Of a stretch of 64,000 nt of DNA, positions 12,414 through 57,446 are shown piece by piece. The stretch is from NCBI GenBank assembly GCA_000165345.1, contig CM000434.1:416001-480000 (forward strand). The letters run 5' to 3'. The first letter of the stretch is position 1; every line of letters starts with the position of its first letter. The notes beneath the pieces were generated by a model that saw nothing but the letters and a program-made list of their open reading frames with translations, did no database searches and was not told the DNA's origin. The position numbers and the translations under genes are program-made.

Positions 12414-12464
12414 AAAATTAGTAAGCTAAATCATAATTAAATATTAATCTAGTAAGTATTTAAA

Positions 12465-13302
12465 TTAACTAGTCATTTTAATATCTTCTTCTACTTCATA
12501 TTCGAGGTTAATTTTTTTCTTTTTTGAAAGAATTTCCCTCAACTCATGCTTATGCATCGCTTCAAGTTCATCTTCTGAGTCATCATCTATGCCCTCGATA
12601 TATTCGGCCAACTCATTTTCAAGAGAATCTCCATTACTAACTTCATCTTGAGTAACATTCTCAAGATTATCTAGTGTTTTCTCAAAATTATTAGTTGGAT
12701 AGTTGTATATTCCATCATACAATCCCTCTTTAAGTCTAAGTAATAACTCATTTTCAATTTCATTTTCAATCTTTGCCGCATTAAGTGCCTTATGCTCTCT
12801 TGACGCCTCTCTTCTTTCCGTTTTTTTCTTAATTGGTACAAGCTTGGGTCTTACGGTTAATGCCATCTTTCTTGCACGAATAAGAGTTTGTCTAATTCTA
12901 GTTAACCTATGTTTGCATTTTAGTATTTGATGCTCGGGATAAACATTCTTTAAATTATCATTTATTTGGGAGATTGCAACCAAAAAATTGTTACTAAGTT
13001 TAATTTTTTCCCAAAGATATCTAGGGGTATGAGCTCTCTCAGCAGTTTTCATATATAAATAGCAATCTCCTTCGTGTTCAATAACTGTTGCATATAGTAA
13101 ATTTGATAAGGGGCATGATGTACGATTGCATAGCCCTGTTACATTATATTCGTTTCTGCAAAAAGAGGTTTTGTCGCATCTAATAAATAAAACAAGAAAA
13201 GAGTAAAGTTCATTGATTATTTCGTTGTAATAAAACTTACTTTACTTTAAATGAGCAAAAATTATTGCTAACACTATTCCATATTAACTCAGGGTCGTTC
13301 AT
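12465..13302 (-). CDS. MAK16: MAK16 ribosome-biogenesis protein (Ribosomal_L28e/Mak16 family), 2 exons: 13302..13241 and 13179..12465, intron 13240..13180 (61 nt)
   Basis: The listed ORF 12465..13052 starts at a Met that aligns to the middle of yeast Mak16 (MKVIERAHFPRRLWERVRLS). The open frame continues upstream as [46 protein letters not shown]. A 62-nt first exon, MNDPELIWNSVSNNFCSFKVK (cf. [22 protein letters not shown]), is joined through a GTAAGT...TTATTAG intron. Total 777 nt, 258 aa. C-terminal acidic tail is typical of Mak16. Confidence 0.8.
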
Positions 13303-13446: not shown

Positions 13447-14922
13447 ATGCATTTATATGGCTCTAATCATACTAAAAATGCCTTTTCTTTAGGAAATACA
13501 CGATCATTCGTCAAATCCATATTGGCTAACGATTATAGACTGGAATTTTTTTTGAACGATACCTACAGGCTAGACAATAAATATGTTCCGGGCGAATTAC
13601 GTGGAATAATTAATTGTGAGCGAATAAACATAGATGAAGAGCATTTGATGATTAATCACTCAGTATTTTCATTAAAAAAACACGTTTTTCTATTGTTAAA
13701 ATTAAAGATTGATAAAAAAAATAAAATAATTCAGTTATTTCCAATTGAAATTAAATATAGCCAAAACGAAAAAAATGAATATTCTTTAATTGAAGAATTG
13801 ATAGTTGAAAATAATATTGAGATTGCCGATCCTATTTCAATTCTCGAGAAAAATTTTGATTATTTTCATTTAAATGAAGCCCTTGAAAATTTATTCACGC
13901 CTAACTTAGACTCATTAATGGACTTCATATTTTTTATTTGGGCTGCAGATGATGAGTTTTGGGACAAAAATAAATTATGTGACATGGGAATATCAAAATG
14001 GTATGAAAGGCTAAGTAATTACAAATCCAAGGTTACAATAGATGGGATTTTATTTAACATTCCAGATTCATTAATACTTGAGTATTTCGAATTAGATGGC
14101 TTTGACATAAACTATGAAGCCCTATCAGAGAGCTCAAGGAAGTGCCTAGAAGATATTAATAAATCGATCAGAGAAAATACAGAGTTTTTTAGTATGGGCT
14201 TTTCACCAAAATTTACATGGTCAGCTCCTACAGACGCAACTTGGATCAATTCAAATAGAAGTATTTGTTGCAGGACTTTAGAAGAATTATTTATTCTTTT
14301 AAAAGCATCTACAAAAGTTTCTGAGGACATTGATAGAGCGAAAGAAGGAAATATAAGTAACGTATTATTGCTTAGAGAGTATGTACCAACACTAAATGAA
14401 ATGTTCGAATTTAGAGTGTTCATTGGGGGATGTAGCCTACATTCTGAATATAAAATTTTAGGTATAAGCCAAAGGCATATATGTTACTATTACAAAGAGC
14501 TTTCTGAAAACTTCAAATTGAGAACTGATATTAAATCTTGTATCATGGAATTTTTTCTGTATTCAAAAAAAGAATTGATTTTAGAATTATTCGACATTTT
14601 TAACAGTATGTGTATTGCATTTGATATATATATCTCAAATTATAAAGACAAATTATCAATTCTTATAATTGATGTACAACCTTTATTGCACGCTTCGCCC
14701 CTTTTATTCAATTTATTCGAACTCAAACTCAATTTATTGACTGAAGAAGGAACAGAGTTAGGTTTTGATATTCTAAGAACAACAGAGAATAATTCAACAA
14801 AAAACATGATTAATAATAGTTATCTAAAAGGTTTCGTTCCGGACGAACTTTTATCCGTTTCTAACTCCGACTTTTATAATAATGAAACTCTAGATAAACT
14901 AGAATGGATTGATTATAAATAG
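13447..14922 (+). CDS. CDC123: CDC123/D123 family protein (cell-division-cycle 123 homolog; eIF2 assembly factor)
   Basis: [39 protein letters not shown] aligns with human [76 protein letters not shown] aligns with [33 protein letters not shown]. 491 aa is longer than the roughly 340-aa norm (extensions). Confidence 0.7.
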   Translation: [491 protein letters not shown]

Positions 14923-16861: not shown

Positions 16862-17738
16862 ATGGACCTTACACTATTAGAGTCAAGTATTGGAATGCCA
16901 AGTCTCCCAAATCAAACTTGTGATGATTTTATGTCCAGCTTAATTGAAATAGGAGACTTGGCATCCTGGTCCCTTTCTTCTGCTAAAGTATGTTTTTACT
17001 TGCACTTGAAAAAATAAAATACATTTCAGCCAGGAAATGGAATACAACAGTTGAGAGATAATAACTCAAGCACATTTTGGCAAAGCGATGGCCAAAGCCC
17101 ACACACAATCACGCTGAGATTTCCTAAAAAAACAAAAGTTTCGGTAATTGATCTATACCTTGCATACAAAATAGATGAAAGTTATACTCCCCAAATTATT
17201 TCTATTAGGTCTGGAAATCAAGAAAGCGATTTGGAGGAGTTGAAAGAAATGCAACTTACTGAACCAGATGGATGGGTAAGAATTCCTCTCTCCCCAAGGG
17301 AAATCGCGGATAATTTTTTTAAAGATGCAATGTAAGTAAATAATAGGTAATTCAAACAATTAATTGTTATTTTTAAGGCCTATACAAATCAAGACAATGT
17401 GCGATTCTCAAAATTATATTTCTGCATTCTGCATTCAGGTAAGAAACATCTTAGAAAATATGAACATACTTATTTATTTTAGATAGCAATACTTGCAAAT
17501 CATCAAACTGGAAGAGATACACATGTCAGGTATGTAAAGTGTGTTTATTTGAATTATTTAATATGCCTTGTTAGACAAATAAGAGTTTGGGGGCCAAGAG
17601 AAGTGAATGACAACGTTGTAGGAAAGTAAGTTAAAAATATAACTTAAAAGATTGACTAAACCTTTCAGAGTCCCAATTTCACAACCAATAAAAATGGGCA
17701 CGACGATTGATACAAGAATGTATCAGATTTTAAGATAA
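16862..17738 (+). CDS. APC10: Anaphase-promoting complex subunit 10 (APC10/DOC1), 6 exons: 16862..16987, 17030..17331, 17378..17438, 17483..17529, 17575..17625, 17669..17738
   Basis: DOC-domain signature: FWQSDGQSPHTITLRFPKKTKVSVIDLYLAYKIDESYTPQIISIRSGN vs human [48 protein letters not shown]. Exon 1 EIGDLASWSLSSAK = human EIGSQAVWSLSSCK. Exon 4 IAILANHQTGRDTHV = IAVLANHQNGRDTHM. Last exon MGTTIDTRMYQILR* = CTTIDFMMYRSIR*. Five introns of 42-46 nt with GTATGT/GTAAGT/GTAAGA donors and YAG acceptors; phases are consistent and total 657 nt (218 aa). The ORF track shows only exon 2 (17051..17335). Confidence 0.75.
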
Positions 17739-31644: not shown

Positions 31645-32057
31645 ATGAAAAATAAAATAAAAGCTTTAGCGACGTCTAATTCCTCAATAGAAAACAATAA
31701 TAAAGTATTCAAACAATGCAGATTAATCGGGACAGTGCTTTTCGGGACTTTAGCAGGAATTTTGGGGTTTAAGGGATTTTCAGGTAAGTCATCTTATGAT
31801 TATTAATATTCCTATTAAACTTCTGTTTTAGGCATTATGTTCTATATTTACTCCTTAATAACTACTTTAATCATCATAGTACTGAAGATAAGAATTAATA
31901 AGTGCAATCACTATTTTGACACGTTTAATGAAGTATTAGGAATTGGTGATTACTTTCTAGTAAGTTCTCAGAAAATAAATATAAATAAATGACTAATTTT
32001 TAGAGTTTTATTCTTTTTTGGTCGATTTCATATTGTATTTGCCACATTTACTATTGA
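31645..32057 (+). CDS. EMC6: ER membrane protein complex subunit 6 (EMC6/TMEM93), 3 exons: 31645..31783, 31832..31959, 32004..32057; absent from the ORF track
   Basis: Spliced product MKNKIKALATSNSSIENNNKVFKQCRLIGTVLFGTLAGILGFKGFSGIMFYIYSLITTLIIIVLKIRINKCNHYFDTFNEVLGIGDYFLSFILFWSISYCICHIYY* (106 aa) aligns along its length with human EMC6 (...[82 protein letters not shown]). Introns of 48 and 44 nt, both GTAAGT...TTTTAG, phases 1 and 0. Confidence 0.7.
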
Positions 32058-32429: not shown

Positions 32430-34841
32430 ATGTATGTGGTGAACAGAAAGGGTGAAGAGGAGCCTGTATCATTTGACCAGATTCTTAGCAGAATCACTAA
32501 ATTATCATATGGACTTCATCCACTTGTTGACCCAGCGAGGGTTACTCAAGCAGTGATAAATGGTCTATATAGTGGAATCAAAACATCTGAATTGGACGAA
32601 CTTGCTTCGCAAACTTGTGCATATATGGCAGCTACCCACAATGATTTCTCTAAACTCGCTGCTCGGATATCGACTTCTAATCTACACAAAAATACTTCTT
32701 CTGATATTGGTGATGTTGCATCGCAACTATATAATTTTAAAGACAATCAAGGTTGCCCTGCTCCTTTAATTTCAAAACCTGTTTATGATTTTATCATGGA
32801 AAATAGAGAAAGAATTAATTCAAAAATTGATTTTTCAAAGGATTTTGAATACGATTATTTTGCCTTCAAAACTCTAGAAAGATCCTATCTTCTTAAAATT
32901 GACAACAAAGTTGTGGAAAGACCACAACATCTTCTGATGCGGGTCTCTTGTGGTATTCATTGTGGTGATATTGAAGCTGCACTTGAAACATATGAGTTGT
33001 TATCGCAAAAATATTTTACTCATGCAACACCCACACTCTTTAATTCAGGCACTCCACGACCTCAAATGTCATCTTGTTTTTTACTCAGGATTCCAGAAGA
33101 TTCAATAAACGGTATCTTTGACACACTAACTAAATGCGCAAACATTAGTAAGACTGCGGGTGGTCTTGGGGTGGCAGTGAGTAATATTAGAGGAACTGGT
33201 TCATATATTCGAGGAACAAATGGGAGATCTAATGGATTAATTCCGATGCTGCGCGTTTATAATGACACTGCTAGGTATATTGATCAAGGTGGAGGGAAGC
33301 GTAAAGGTGCCATTGCAATTTATTTGGAGCCGTGGCACGTTGATGTTGTAGAGTTTATTGAAATCAGGAAGAATCACGGAAAGGAAGAGATGAGATGTCG
33401 CGATCTCTTTCCTGCCCTTTGGGTTCCTGATCTGTTCATGGAAAGAGTTGAGAAGGATCAAGATTGGACTCTAATGTGCCCAGATGAATGCAGGGGATTG
33501 CAAGATGTTTGGGGCGATGATTTTAAGAAGCTATATGAAGAGTATGAGAAACAAGGCCGTGGAAGGAAAACGATGAAAGCGCAGAAACTTTGGTTCTTAA
33601 TCTTACAGGCTCAAATTGAGACGGGGACACCATTTATTTGTTATAAAGATGCTGCAAATAGCAAAAGTAACCAGAAAAATTTGGGAACTATTGTTTCAAG
33701 TAACTTATGCACAGAAATCATAGAATACACTAGCACGGACGAAGTTGCCGTCTGTAATCTGGCGTCTATTGGCCTTCCAAAATTCGTTGATAAAAATAAC
33801 AAGACGTTTGATTTTGATAAGTTAAAAGAAGTTACGAAGGTGATTACGAGGAATTTGAATAAATTGATTGACGTTGGATATTATTCTCTCAAAGAGTGTA
33901 AAAAATCGAATTTAAGACATCGTCCATTGGGGATTGGCATTCAAGGGCTCGCAGACTGTTTTATGATGCTTCGTATGCCGTACGAGTCTGAGGGAGCTAA
34001 GAAGTTAAATAAACAAATTTTTGAAGTTATCTATTATGCAGCTCTCGACGCTAGCTGTGAGCTTGCAGAAAAATACGGGCCATACGAAACATATTCCGGT
34101 TCGCCTGCGAGTAAGGGTATTTTACAATTTGATATGTGGGGAGTTACACCAGACTCTGGACTTTGTGATTGGGATTTGCTTAAAGATAGGATTTCCAAAC
34201 ATGGTATTCGTAATTCTCTATTAATATCTCCAATGCCAACAGCATCCACTTCGCAAATTTTAGGTAACAATGAGAGTTTTGAGCCATTTACCTCGAACAT
34301 TTATCATCGTAGAGTACTATCTGGTGAGTTCTTTGTAGTAAATCCGCATTTGCTAAATGATTTACTAGAGCTTGGGTTATGGGATGATAGGCTTAAGCAG
34401 AATATTATTGCAAATAATGGCAGTATTCAAAATATACTTACAATTCCGGAAGATATACGCGAGCTTTATAAGACTGTATGGGAAATTAAGCAAAAGACAG
34501 TAATTGATATGGCTGCAGATAGGGGTCCATATGTTTGTCAATCGCAATCTTTGAACATTCATATGGAAAATGCTAACTTTGCAAAGTTATCATCTATGCA
34601 TTTTTATGGTTGGAAAAAAGGTCTAAAAACAGGCATTTATTATTTAAGGACCCAAAGCGCGACACGCCCCATACAATTTACAGTAGATCAACAACTCCTG
34701 AAATCGGAAACTAAAGAAAAGGATTCACTGGAGACTAACAAACGACAAGCACTCGAACCAGAGGCACAAAAGCTCATCGCTTGCCCATTAAGACCGACAA
34801 ATATGAAGGATGATGAAGAATGTATGATGTGTTCTGGTTAA
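32430..34841 (+). CDS. Ribonucleoside-diphosphate reductase large subunit (RNR R1)
   Basis: 803 aa. N-terminal ATP-cone ([23 protein letters not shown]), catalytic-site NLCTEI and active-site Cys/Glu context ([12 protein letters not shown]), [12 protein letters not shown], and the C-terminal redox-shuttle CxxC tail (ECMMCSG*). Textbook class Ia R1. Confidence 0.95.
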
Positions 34842-37434: not shown

Positions 37435-38166
37435 AAAATGGAGCTGCATTTTATTTTGAAAAAGTTCAGAAAAATACTCAACTATGTGTTTATACAAAGT
37501 ATTACGTATTAAAGATAGTGATTAAATAAAGTGAATCCCGTAATAATACATATTACTTTATTGCAGCCTGTGATATAAAATGCGAAGTTCTATTATATTT
37601 TCAACACTGCTTTCAAGCTGCTATCCCACACATAAGGAATGCCAATAAAAATTATGGAAACTTTGTTTTCTTTACTTAAATATCAAAACATTCGAAATCC
37701 CGTGATTTAAAGTTGCAGATTTATTTGATTGAATTAAATCAAAACATGCGCACACAAAATTAAATTGTCATTTTGGGTATAATTTTTTTTTTGTAAGAAA
37801 TTTATCAATACAGAGTTGTAACAATTCTAACATGTTTTTGAGTATATTCGGTTTGCAAGTAAATAGTTTGAATTATTTTTACAAGTATTTAGCTATCATT
37901 GTTATCTTGTTCACAAAATATTGTAGCTTATAATATTAAGAAACTCTCTAATCGAGCAACTAATTAAAAAAGGAAAAATAACATACAATAAGAAATATAA
38001 TTAATTTCGGCGATTTTAATGTTTGTACTGCCTATATTTAGAGCTTTTTGTAAAGCTCATTGGAATTAAAATGAGCCAATTTGTTCTTATACAAATTCAA
38101 TTTCTAATTAATATATTTTACAATTGCATTAGGAGTTAGAAACAAAAATCAGTTTTTGAATCGTAG

Positions 38167-44100: not shown

Positions 44101-45270
44101 CACCTTAAATTCGTTTTTGTAATTTGATAAATTTAATTTAGCACTTAAATCATTTATGTAGTCTTCTAGAAGTTGGAAAGGCTCAAAGCTTATATATAAG
44201 TTATTTATCCCAAATAAAGAAATAATTTGTTTAAAGTATGAAAAAATATTGTTTGAATCATCTTGAATTGACTTAGAAATGTTTCCTATTGATTTTATGT
44301 AATTTTCTTCAAAGTTGGTATTTGTTATATATCTTTCAATTTCAAGACACTTTTTTTCGTATTTCTTACAACATTCTATTCTTAATAATATATTTTCGAA
44401 AATCTTATTATATTTCTCTTGAAGTGCCAATTTAGGAGATGTGCCTTTAACTTTTAGTTCTCTATAGATTTTGATAAGTGAATACTTTATCTCCTTAATT
44501 GTCTCGGTGTAATTACTGTGATCTGATAATTCAAAGTTATCTTCATCTAAAATCATGGAGCATAATTTCTGCAACTTAAGTTCTTTTAACATAAGATCTC
44601 CAAATATATGGTCATTATTCTTATTTGCTGAAATTGAATTCCTTATATTAAATAAATTCCAAGAACTGAAAAAATCAAATAAATATTCACAATTCACTAT
44701 AATTTTTTTATTAAATATTTCTTCTTCCGAATAATCACCCAAAATCCTCTCCAGAACAATACTACATTCCAAAAAATCGCCTTGATAGAATAAAACTTTG
44801 CAAAGTAATTTAAATAGAACATTTTCTTCTTCAAGGCTTGAATTCATTTTTTCCAATTTATTTTCTCGTTGGCAAATAAGAAACTCTATACAAAATCTAC
44901 AAAGTTTTAAAACATTTGTGGTTCTTCCATCTAATGCTTCAATAAAACTATTTCTTTTTAAAACATTATTTTCTCCAGAAAATGATATAGAATTAAATAT
45001 TCTATAATATCTATCCAAAATTTCAACCCCAATGTTTGCAATGGTTTTGCAGGTATTTAGCCTTGCATTACCATCATAAATATCATCTTTGAATAATGAA
45101 AAAAGCTTTTTTGATTCATTTTCGAAAGACAGTAATATGTCATAGTTACATAATTGTTCAATATTCATAGCAAATAGTCTATTAAAAAGTATAAATTGAA
45201 TTTCATGTATTCCCGCATCAACTTGAAAAGTAACATTTATTATTAACAATCCTTCTAAAGAAAGATGCAA
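38167..45270 (-). CDS. Very large hypothetical protein (2367 aa), helical-repeat-like, no recognisable catalytic domain
   Basis: Single 7.1-kb uninterrupted ORF. Composition like neighbouring genes. Long stretches of predicted amphipathic helices; no kinase/ATPase/Sec7/RING motifs seen. Confidence 0.6.
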   Translation of the reverse strand: MHLSLEGLLIINVTFQVDAGIHEIQFILFNRLFAMNIEQLCNYDILLSFENESKKLFSLFKDDIYDGNARLNTCKTIANIGVEILDRYYRIFNSISFSGENNVLKRNSFIEALDGRTTNVLKLCRFCIEFLICQRENKLEKMNSSLEEENVLFKLLCKVLFYQGDFLECSIVLERILGDYSEEEIFNKKIIVNCEYLFDFFSSWNLFNIRNSISANKNNDHIFGDLMLKELKLQKLCSMILDEDNFELSDHSNYTETIKEIKYSLIKIYRELKVKGTSPKLALQEKYNKIFENILLRIECCKKYEKKCLEIERYITNTNFEENYIKSIGNISKSIQDDSNNIFSYFKQIISLFGINNLYISFEPFQLLEDYINDLSAKLNLSNYKNEFKVNSDRRTRSKNVNNDLPNVNLNKEVIERDLLLELDNPLKKIIIDISSNTVTFPKYNDKQYKIWIQTIPYYCYNLILSVLKKEEMKCDNIFSLNLNNNFPSIEQFDEMIVHETNFITEQYSAMLETKYVSFQDIKQLFDNLRHKFLMNFDEQHIFEVDNRFSFLSGNLLTSVDEFLLNSNNLLNKIQKFIFSTKNEDIIITSETISSLLFSITEKLFKYTMGIITNIVDFTKFHRYNDKPTIRFQCSNHKSRIFDKNYLCSKLTSKLYYLLFQVNKQIQKEILLLFYSIMKTLIIFIFVTNNIISNTKSNIQISFYNELKSNFLYLLDTFTIIKEKLNNYLISEIDLSTKKLLIIFKVIEIPIVKIYLEDELVFFLKEDLMKISGYAGNINLILKLFSDLDQNNQGGIISTGFALKLLSDNSIRTIKEKFSNWISIYNSKCSHEFPTYDIIANYSVFLDNNYLEYMQMKKINCNLRNEIIDHKFLQHTNSIILDINQWIKKFERFDLSENFCEFLISLLKNLVLIINKDIQYLYFNNIIVNSIISNITKLIIKITEIYELNLINISKLSKKPLHKLTMETILINISCIHKVFMNNLSANKLNILVMKNLINLLIALFDFFKYSSTIEEISSNSIINLIRYLTYLEFSFEFVKDENKEQKETKVYTKQSEEDTFKRHILNNYCILFPIIEEQTFDFEGIYDINEVMINEQFDKFFNSTLSTKVLLLTITIKYGLFSNLSVIENWFKEIYTFVQVYKTNSHLKNWNLLYHNCRKVVKNYSALFCNLNMKKLYEKIELEKYCLFPEQETEYLELLGIQFQLLYGLPVCPLPSMPFNKMAIYNQSQIYDYLFDLKILVSNETNFKNLFINWIINLIKNNEFRSSGILEYISPYSPLIILSCNIFQTLINCTSLTERQYSDSKVKFYTSIIGLVERLFFNLNNLKEADAGNIWNIISSPLIYPLFMETLSEIMNSEKFYFDTTGKTLLQDDFSSILYNSQVSDQILNYYDNIMVLSPSFSNFEMDEFEVEKHGFEDLLFDEISIYIKENNLVIASLEPLLYSKYYYTILLDRFMKSNLDIKYLSNEFLDETLVQIRSKVENLISFPNGDNIFLKINWKNNIQKFIPFRFIKDCFISCIPVSYMDRSSSLWSPGRFGVTGNNNIQLSLSTLFKYLKLLNMNLFLMDNYDLNIVTCCNNVLKQIICELDDYDTFQRLERNFPVFIKRMVAQLIYLLQCEIKFFLKPERNIQIPYSQIVNNILSASFDQLIIRLINIKSVYGKTNAKYLLIYLNKVKVLSKHNFNNEIFPRSFEKDLLINLIQVISKLRKTLFTEFIPKISNEEKKWYCIYTNSFSQIQNCVWLPSLLESKARFKLAKIMISSFIYSPVDNHNHVEAAITELKNSYYLSIESLIICYLILSGNTDEIDTFFKNYEKHSGIEITKFFNSRLITIYILFFNIYLNKFPEKNPLYNKIGFMKSQINDILKNINISYSNLSTNLAGILFYFYKSFINLQSIKQFIVLFITNKSFPINDNEIAEFKDLIKINSHSINNYSITEMINELIFDELNSSQTTLKKNKLTQSIFTPIINQSFSYFSMINYILLGENSTNLLLYYQKFLLLNKKVMNFWGLETNKLINDHYNGLYLRRNRKYLCYKYKFMLVPSMLILVIKNEITFDMNNILYNCINSETEIFACFNKDLTLDDRYSSPIFFPIYNSLLDTKCDNFANLSDISYYYLVNLNQILDHLIDLLINEFKSIRQLPAVEKFEYLINDQIKNNNKKGINTNLIDIGIINWNDISESGHFNISLNIILKILNNILDIFNFVDEIGLPVDGKLFSSLFGLVIIFYKYEIVSSEHKKSQLKSEFAQCIPLSVIKQLERQLGSFLQTNIPFSVVHKIGEIKVSLEFNFINIFNKCFTFSLDKKVIYSRNYFLEVVKLLIQFLGISSNGVNFVNLYSENSEVIEGFLFEEIMPEVKKRKRYDTSLFD

Positions 45271-55775: not shown

Positions 55776-57301
55776 ATGGATGGGACGCTACATCAAAATG
55801 AAATTATTTCTTTGCTAGACGAAAAAAGAACCATTTCAAGCACAATAAAATTTTCGTCGCTACTTGGGTCTATTACAATAACCAAGTTAGTAATATTTTT
55901 GGTCGGATTCTCAGATGGACTGACTCACCTCGCAACGCTGGCAATTTACTACTTGCTGAAGGATGATTTACGCCTCTCTCCTCCTGAAGTATCGGTTATA
56001 TATGCAATTCCTGCGATACCTTGGTTTTTGAAACCTTTATTTGGTAAGCTACAAACCATTTTTTAAAGTATAAATAAATTTCTTAAAGCATTTTGCAGTG
56101 ATTCAATACCTATTGCAGGTAAGCTTGAAGCTCATTCAAATATATTCGTATAACATACTTATAGGAATGAGAAGAAAGCCATACTTGATTTTTTTCTCAA
56201 TTCTTCAAGTTATAGGCTTTTTACTACTTGCAACAAACGTAAGTTAACTCTAAATTTATAATAATATTTTTAATAGTTTCAGGCTGATACTGTTTTTAAA
56301 GCTGCAGTCTGCCTACTACTAATATCTTTAAGTGCAGCATTTTGTAGCAGTATTGCTGAGGTAAGTTATTAGAAAATAGATTAATTAATCAATAATCTCT
56401 AAAAAAACAGGCATTAGTTGTAGAGACATCTGGAATTAATGGTGGTGCTGAAACAGTCTCCGATTATTTTGGCTCAAAGGCATTGGGTGCACTAGCAACG
56501 GCATATTTTTCTGGTTCATTGTTAGATACATACAGTAAACAAGGAATATTTCTTACAACGTCAATTTTTCCATTATTTGTTTTTATCGCTTGTCTGATAA
56601 TGGATGATAAAAAACAGACAGAAGATCTCACTGCGAAGAATCAGCTATTTTCGCTTAAGGAATTTTTGAAAAAACCCATAATTTGGGGGCCTGCAATATA
56701 TATTTTTACTTATACTGCAGGACCAGACTACGACGATGCAATGTTTTTTTACTTTACAAATAGGCTTGGCTTTTCGCCGACATTTATGGGTAGCTTAAGG
56801 CTTACTTATGGAATTGCAGGTATAATTGGAATTGTTCTATATAGAATTATTCTCAAGAAGACCCCATTCCGTGAAATATTGCTTTGGACTACTTTGTTTT
56901 CAATACCAATTTATATTCTACCTCTAGCGCTTGTCACAGGACTCAATTTGAATATGGGAATTTCGAATAGAATGTTTGCATTGTCTGGTGGATTTCTGAT
57001 TGAAGCCATTGCAGAAATACAGTTGTTACCACTTCTTGTAATGACTGCAAAGTTTTGCCCAAAAGGCCTTGAAGGGTCTGTATATGCGGTTATGATGTCA
57101 ATACGAAGTCTTGGAATAGGGGTTTCAAAAGTTATCTCCGCAGGATTGGCCTACTCACTTGGAATTACAGCATTCAATTTTTCAAACTTGGGGTTATTAA
57201 TTTGGATTTCTTCCGCATTTCTCCTGCTGCCTCTCTTTTTTCTAAATTTGGTTAGTTATCATACTTTTTCCATATTTCAAGTTCATTTTTTTAGGTTGTG
57301 A
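55776..57301 (+). CDS. Folate-biopterin transporter (BT1 family, MFS), 5 exons: 55776..56043, 56089..56118, 56165..56238, 56283..56360, 56411..57301
   Basis: Exon 1 carries the BT1 signature GLTHLATLAIYYLLKDDLRLSPPEVSVIYAIPAIPWFLKPLF. Splicing gives ...KPLFAFCSDSIPIAGMRRKPYLIFFSILQVIGFLLLATN... (cf. plant/protist BT1 [30 protein letters not shown]), then ADTVFKAAVCLLLISLSAAFCSSIAE and ALVVETSGINGG... continuing into the listed ORF 56483..57301. Introns of 45, 46, 44 and 50 nt (GTAAGC/GTAAGT donors, AAG/TAG/CAG acceptors). An alternative acceptor at 56098 is excluded because it creates an in-frame TGA in exon 3. Total 1341 nt, 446 aa, roughly 11 TM helices. Confidence 0.75.
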
Positions 57302-57446
57302 ATGAAGAAGAGATCCAAAGTACAGAAAATCAAGTATAATTCAATATTCTCAAAATGATTAAAATTAAATAACGAAATATCTTATGAGATTTTATTTAGA
57401 ATTGAAAATAATTTTCTATACTACAGTAAATTTTTACTATGAAAGT

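Follow-up and report, generated by a model that had tools for sequence, protein, structure and literature searches.

Introduction

In the stretch of Cryptosporidium parvum chromosome 6 examined here, the gene encoding MAK16 is interrupted by 61 nt at positions 13180-13240 on the minus strand. The whole 64,000-nucleotide stretch that was analysed (hereafter the window) is gene-dense, with a GC content of about 30%, and the interruption raises the question of whether this and similar short, AT-rich elements nearby are genuine spliceosomal introns. An original prediction, made from the letters of the DNA, had described 13 such elements as a uniform class with strong donors, confined to small and highly conserved genes, and had derived from them a pattern for re-annotating the genome. 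Here we evaluate the identity of these introns, their conservation across the genus, the possibility that some of them are alternatively spliced, and their association with gene size.

Introns in Cryptosporidium have been surveyed previously. Irimia & Roy 2008 (PMC2483917) described C. parvum as an intron-poor exception in which the branch point is not clear, and reported 213 Cryptosporidium introns that are T-rich and 78% AT, with GTAAGT donors in 84% and lengths that average 82 nt (median 61 nt). A later survey (Isaza et al. 2015, PMC4637869) reported 688 introns with a mean length of 99 nt and 22% GC, 10.8% of genes having introns. More recently, the introns of the CPATCC (CpIA) annotation were described as 100% RNA-seq supported (Baptista et al. 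2022, PMC8744675), and the gene models of the 2025 T2T paper are likewise based on RNA-seq.

Results

The 803-aa ribonucleotide reductase ORF of the window (32430-34841) is identical in BX526834.1, CP141123.1 and CP029785.1, all of which represent C. parvum chromosome 6. Pfam content, which includes a chagasin-type inhibitor, a mucin-type GalNAc transferase, a BT1 transporter and kinesins, agrees with this identity, and tRNA and Rfam scans of the whole window returned no matches. Introns were located by finding GT-AG excisions whose products have the lengths annotated for them in public assemblies, an approach for which the solutions were unique or nearly so, and splicing was deduced from reading frame, similarity to known proteins, conservation between species and identity to models of annotations described as RNA-seq supported. 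Matching accessions come from the IOWA-ATCC annotation (QOY..., CPATCC tags) and the IOWA-BGF T2T annotation (WRK..., cpbgf tags).

The MAK16 gene (12465..13302, minus strand) consists of two exons encoding 258 aa. Exon 1 (62 nt, 13302..13241) opens with ATG and is followed by the 61-nt intron (13180..13240, minus strand; GTAAGT...TTATTAG), which lies in phase 2 after codon 20, with its donor G at 13240 and its final G at 13180. Excision fuses exon 1 to a 195-codon ORF, and a single GT-AG model yields the annotated 258 aa, identical to CAD98724.1 and QOY41062.1. The Ribosomal_L28e domain scores 39 bits over profile positions 61-114 in the unspliced ORF and 115 bits over positions 1-114 of 115 in the spliced product, and retention of the intron ends translation at 21 aa.

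Four further genes, all on the plus strand, contain comparable introns. The APC10 gene (16862..17738) has six exons encoding a 218-aa product identical to QOY41065.1 and WRK32784.1. Its five introns comprise one of 42 nt in phase 0 (16988..17029; GTATGT...TTTCAG), retention of which leads to a stop at 51 aa, followed by introns of 46 nt in phase 2 (17332..17377; GTAAGT...TTTAAG), 44 nt in phase 0 (17439..17482; GTAAGA...TTTTAG), 45 nt in phase 2 (17530..17574; GTATGT...TGTTAG), which is in frame and stop-free, and 43 nt in phase 2 (17626..17668; GTAAGT...TTTCAG). A DUF1764 'basic protein' gene (20090-20487; 117 aa, identical to QOY41069.1 and WRK32788.1) carries a single 44-nt intron (20391..20434; GTAAGT...CAATAG), and its profile score is 75.5 bits (7-100 of 100) when spliced versus 31.6 bits when unspliced. 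Similarly, the EMC6 gene (31645-32057; 106 aa, identical to QOY41075.1 and WRK32794.1) has a first intron of 48 nt (31784..31831; GTAAGT...TTTTAG), retention of which leads to a stop at 53 aa, and a second of 44 nt (31960..32003; GTAAGT...TTTTAG).

The BT1 gene (55776-57339; 444 aa, identical to QOY41083.1 and WRK32803.1) is interrupted five times. Intron 1 (56044..56088; 45 nt, GTAAGC...TTAAAG, phase 1) and intron 2 (56119..56164; 46 nt, GTAAGC...TTATAG, phase 1) flank a 30-nt microexon (56089..56118) encoding AFCSDSIPIA. They are followed by intron 3 (56239..56282; 44 nt, GTAAGT...TTTCAG, phase 0), intron 4 (56361..56410; 50 nt, GTAAGT...AAACAG, phase 0) and intron 5 (57251..57294; 44 nt, GTTAGT...TTTTAG, phase 0), the last of which shifts the stop from 57301 to 57339. 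The original prediction had assigned four introns to this gene, and since its donor list contains GTAAGC, which occurs only at the two sites flanking the microexon, these four appear to include it. All four are real; the fifth (57251-57294) was missed, and the 446-aa protein thereby implied, with its stop at 57301, is absent from the protein collection searched, whereas the five-intron product of 444 aa is deposited.

In total the window holds 14 CDS introns, spread over 5 of its 32 genes (16%). Each of the 13 originally proposed (one in MAK16, five in APC10, two in EMC6, four in BT1 and one in the basic protein) proved correct, the count itself falling one short. All five spliced products (258, 117, 106, 218 and 444 aa) match deposited C. 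parvum proteins residue for residue, and in Pfam comparisons all five outscore unspliced or partly spliced rivals and reach the ends of their profiles. Retention of any one of 12 of the 14 introns would introduce a premature stop; together with the exact matches to deposited proteins, this makes the pattern far more than could be expected by chance. When sequence collections were searched for the spliced products, they were present in NCBI, UniRef and EukProt sources and on none of the Logan contigs.

The physical description of these introns as a class also held. Every one of the 14 falls within the anticipated range of 42-61 nt, the median being 44.5 nt, with ten at 42-46 nt and none shorter than 42 nt. 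All have GT...AG ends, with acceptors in TAG, CAG or AAG as proposed. The donors GTAAGT (8 of 14, 57%), GTATGT (two), GTAAGC (two) and GTAAGA (one) were correctly listed, GTTAGT (one) being the sole omission, and ten of the 14 conform to GTAWGT. GC content is 22.4% in introns, 25.6% in intergenic DNA and 30.2% in CDS, in agreement with the proposed combination of AT-rich introns and strong donors. Branch-point motifs (CTAAY, YTAAY, CTRAY and related forms) are no commoner in the 14 introns than in shuffled sequences. U12-type introns have the donor consensus RTATCCTT and the branch site TCCTTAAC; none of the 14 donors resembles ATATCC or GTATCC. Self-splicing group I and group II introns are ruled out by the 42-61 nt size and by the lack of Rfam matches in the window.

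Conservation across the genus provides further evidence on the origin of these interruptions. Intron positions were compared at the base level for APC10 in four species and for BT1 between C. parvum and C. andersoni; for MAK16 and DUF1764 the comparison was with C. muris and covered total intron length. C. canis, C. bovis and C. muris each carry the five APC10 introns at the same positions and in the same phases, with lengths ranging from 42 to 79 nt. Exons are 73-81% identical to those of C. parvum and intron interiors 44-50%, which is the level of shuffled controls (49.9 +/- 5.4%). All five BT1 intron positions, including those that delimit the microexon, are kept in C. andersoni, and the DUF1764 orthologue of C. 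muris has one intron of 79 nt, as judged by total intron length. Judged by annotated gene ranges, MAK16, APC10, DUF1764 and BT1 are the only ones of these genes to bear introns in C. muris and C. andersoni, and the orthologues of the large genes in both species are single-exon. That the same genes bear introns in these species implies that this distribution, with large genes free of introns, was in place before the genus radiated. In the gastric-clade species C. muris and C. andersoni the orthologous introns measure 57-79 nt, against 42-52 nt in C. parvum and C. canis, a systematic difference that fits lineage-specific intron shortening.

The element at 13180-13240 and its 13 counterparts are almost certainly conventional U2-type (GT-AG) spliceosomal introns of C. 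parvum. Coincidental GT...AG ends are readily found in so AT-rich a genome, where GTA- and -AG strings are frequent: a looser, broad donor pattern marks 102 distinct donors in the window, 13 of them true (recovering 13 of the 14 introns) and 89 false. One could propose that errors of assembly or sequencing created the interruptions, or that they belong to decaying pseudogenes. However, several independent C. parvum assemblies agree on the translations of neighbouring ORFs and show the same genes as interrupted; the interruptions keep their codon and phase in species whose exons are only 73-81% identical; and the spliced products span full Pfam profiles. We consider an origin through error or decay to be exceedingly improbable.

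With the interruptions read as spliceosomal introns, it can be asked whether all are constitutively removed. Two are compatible with read-through, APC10 17530-17574 (stop-free and in frame) and BT1 57251-57294 (with a nearby stop), and both, being kept in some deposited models, may be partially retained. A stronger proposal is that alternative splicing or retention, affecting some of these two introns and the BT1 microexon, gives two isoforms, which would account for the deposition of both forms of each protein (218 and 233 aa for APC10; 444 and 434 aa for BT1), for the open frame across the 45-nt APC10 intron and the short extension through BT1 intron 5, and for the presence in BT1 intron 3 of two in-frame acceptors 6 nt apart.

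For APC10, the 233-aa models KAL5368058.1 and WKS78294.1 keep the 45-nt intron 4, and newer assemblies with models of this retained type also include C. hominis (KAL3127532.1). Excision of intron 4 (17530-17574) restores GRDTHVRQIRVWGP, and the ANAPC10 profile scores 204.2 bits with this intron removed versus 193.6 bits with it retained. Pfam scores thus favour the fully spliced 218-aa form over the 233-aa form as the probable product.

For BT1, older models of 434 aa omit the microexon (56089-56118), the inclusion of which raises the Pfam score by 26 bits (266 versus 240). The encoded AFCSDSIPIA aligns with a conserved motif of C. andersoni, C. felis, Toxoplasma, Plasmodium FT2, Porospora and a cyanobacterial BT1. 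Skipping of the microexon is seen in the C. parvum models CAD98492.1 and KAL5368076.1, and also in C. hominis, C. tyzzeri, C. bovis (432-435 aa) and C. ubiquitum (438 aa); in addition, the 3' intron is left unspliced in the models of C. ubiquitum, C. felis and C. bovis. Removal of intron 5 gives the C-terminus VVNEEEIQ, which aligns with VINEEEYK of C. andersoni and PNEEHIE of Plasmodium, and the corresponding intron of C. andersoni occupies the same position and has the donor GTAAGT, the GTTAGT of C. parvum being weaker. Of the two acceptors of intron 3 (TAATAG at 56276 and TTTCAG at 56282), annotation takes the distal; the 444-aa database protein corresponds to 56282, and the product of the proximal acceptor, which would insert the residues FQ, is absent from the protein collection.

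Against the existence of two isoforms, the alternative forms lose conserved residues, namely a DOC-domain motif in APC10 and the SDSxPI motif in BT1, the intron positions are kept across the genus, and the alternative forms resemble the output of different annotation pipelines rather than transcript evidence. Furthermore, only three putative alternatively spliced genes are reported genome-wide (CPATCC_0027530, CPATCC0027960 and CPATCC_0035590; PMC8744675), and by their numbering none is among the five genes described here. We regard the production of two isoforms as unlikely, and the BT1 models that skip the microexon or keep the 3' intron are persistent mis-annotations.

A related difference between models concerns EMC6, which newer assemblies annotate as 99 aa, the second intron (31960-32003) being missing. 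The EMC6 profile scores 46.2 bits (2-81 of 81) for the 106-aa form versus 35.1 bits (2-62) for the 99-aa model, which favours the 106-aa form as the likely protein.

Given these verified introns, the usefulness of a scanning rule could be assessed directly. The pattern originally recommended, GTAWGT(N30-50)YAG, finds only 8 of the 14 introns when applied to the window, along with 21 non-intron donors, 17 of which lie within coding sequence. In intergenic spacers the rule matches at about the background rate, and the spacer matches at 12421(+), 20498(+), 37986(-) and 55678(+), which do not exceed that rate, join no ORFs. It had also been suggested that other genes may hide short 5' exons; RNA-seq-based annotations contain no such exons, and spacers hold no excess of matches to the pattern. 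The advised scan range of 40-60 nt is narrow relative to the published genome-wide median of 61 nt and means of 82-99 nt, and the proposed use of the rule in re-annotation has been overtaken, the genome having already been re-annotated with RNA-seq.

Within intronless ORFs only two in-frame, AT-rich, intron-like pieces were found. One of these, at 14606-14647 in D123, was rejected as a hidden intron as it lies within the D123 Pfam match; it encodes an FDIYI stretch, which we take to resemble a conserved D123 motif. An apparent avoidance of GTAAGT on the sense strand of CDS (5 occurrences versus 18 on the antisense strand) was also dismissed, because it is explained by protein sequence and codon usage (synonymous-codon shuffles gave 7.6 +/- 2.6, P=0.22).

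The proposed association of introns with small genes holds in the window, within the bounds of five intron-bearing genes. Their median length is 218 aa, compared with 604 aa for intronless genes (one-sided Mann-Whitney p=0.008, n=5 vs 27, the test being post hoc). All 14 introns lie in genes of at most 444 aa, and genes of at most 450 aa make up 17% of coding length. The large genes expected to be uninterrupted (2367, 1676, 1011, 962, 945 and 943 aa) are indeed single ORFs, and where annotated they are single-exon, with a gene range equal to 3 x (aa+1); for the 2367-aa and 962-aa ORFs, annotation places the start further in, giving 2333 and 959 aa. High conservation, the other property by which intron-bearing genes were said to be marked, does not distinguish them, most intronless genes here also having Pfam domains.

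This restriction to small genes could be a sampling accident of the window or a product of detection bias, given that only five genes bear introns, that the comparison was prompted by the pattern itself, that ten small genes in the window are intronless, and that detection by eye works only where homology reveals a broken ORF. Several observations run counter to such an explanation: the RNA-seq-based annotations also give the large genes no CDS introns, the size difference is captured by the Mann-Whitney test with all introns falling in 17% of coding length, C. muris and C. andersoni have the same distribution, and of the two intron-like pieces in intronless ORFs one is the segment inside the D123 match. 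We consider accident or bias possible, but on the improbable side. That the confinement of introns to short genes represents a genome-wide, genus-old rule of Cryptosporidium, which has not been explicitly described before, is a tentative idea that we think is probably not correct. If true, such a rule would suggest that, in the ancestor of the genus, intron loss depended on length or selection acted against the splicing of long transcripts.

Discussion

The short, AT-rich GTAAGT introns of C. parvum are already published, and all 14 introns of the window are present in current reference annotations. Like the published C. parvum introns, those described here are AT-rich, have GTAAGT as their commonest donor and occur in a small fraction of genes (16% in the window, about 11% in published data). 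No branch-point motif exceeds shuffle level in them, which agrees with the published description. They are shorter than the published set (median 44.5 versus 61 nt), and the share of GTAAGT is 57% in the window compared with 84% in a predicted set of the 2004 era, but nothing of substance differs.

From what is generally known of the spliceosome, the near-consensus donors would be expected to pair with the 5' end of U1 snRNA, and the donor may serve as the main recognition signal in an intron-poor genome that has no recognisable branch-point consensus. The tight range of lengths, with ten of the 14 introns at 42-46 nt, could reflect shrinkage to the minimal spliceable length in a compacted genome, and this cluster suggests a lower length limit. 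In APC10 and BT1, the two genes compared between species, introns keep their positions and phases throughout the genus, and their length and interior sequence drift freely.

Comparable systems share some of these features. Hemiascomycete yeasts, Encephalitozoon, Giardia and Trichomonas likewise have few introns and a near-invariant, U1-matching 5' splice site; however, they also have a strong ACTAAC-like branch point at a fixed distance from the AG, a motif that is not enriched in the 14 introns of the window. Narrow length distributions near the lower limit, as in the window, are found in Paramecium and the Bigelowiella nucleomorph. A minimal-length intron class in compact genomes is also known from Schizosaccharomyces and Pneumocystis. 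Compact genomes with minimal introns are intron-rich and have a weak splice-site consensus, in contrast to C. parvum, which is intron-poor and combines short introns with strong donors.

These findings have value for quality control, in that a reading of sequence by itself recovers real introns in a compact parasite genome, including those around a 30-nt microexon. Furthermore, several public Cryptosporidium models are still wrong, including the 434-aa BT1, which does not have the transporter motif, the 233-aa APC10 with its retained intron, and the truncated 99-aa EMC6.

Additional observations relate to the organization of the window. The 3' ends of two convergent genes are separated by a gene-free gap of 733 nt (37435-38166), which is unusually long for the C. 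parvum genome, where the published mean intergenic length is about 550-590 nt; no ORF, Rfam match or repeat was found in it, and it probably holds the 3' UTRs of both flanking genes. At the 5' end (45169-45270, minus strand) of the 2367-codon ORF the start is TTG, with no ATG there, and the first ATG gives the annotated product of 2333 aa. Upstream of this annotated start lie 34 stop-free codons, and no intron of the 42-61-nt class is able to supply the 2333-aa gene with a 5' exon.

Finally, the 2003 annotation of BX526834.1 merges adjacent genes through long predicted introns: APC10 is joined to SRP19 as a protein of 241 aa, the 1011-aa and 1676-aa genes are combined as 2470 aa, and the 224-aa and 255-aa genes as 364 aa. 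Merged models of this kind may have inflated early genome-wide statistics of intron length.
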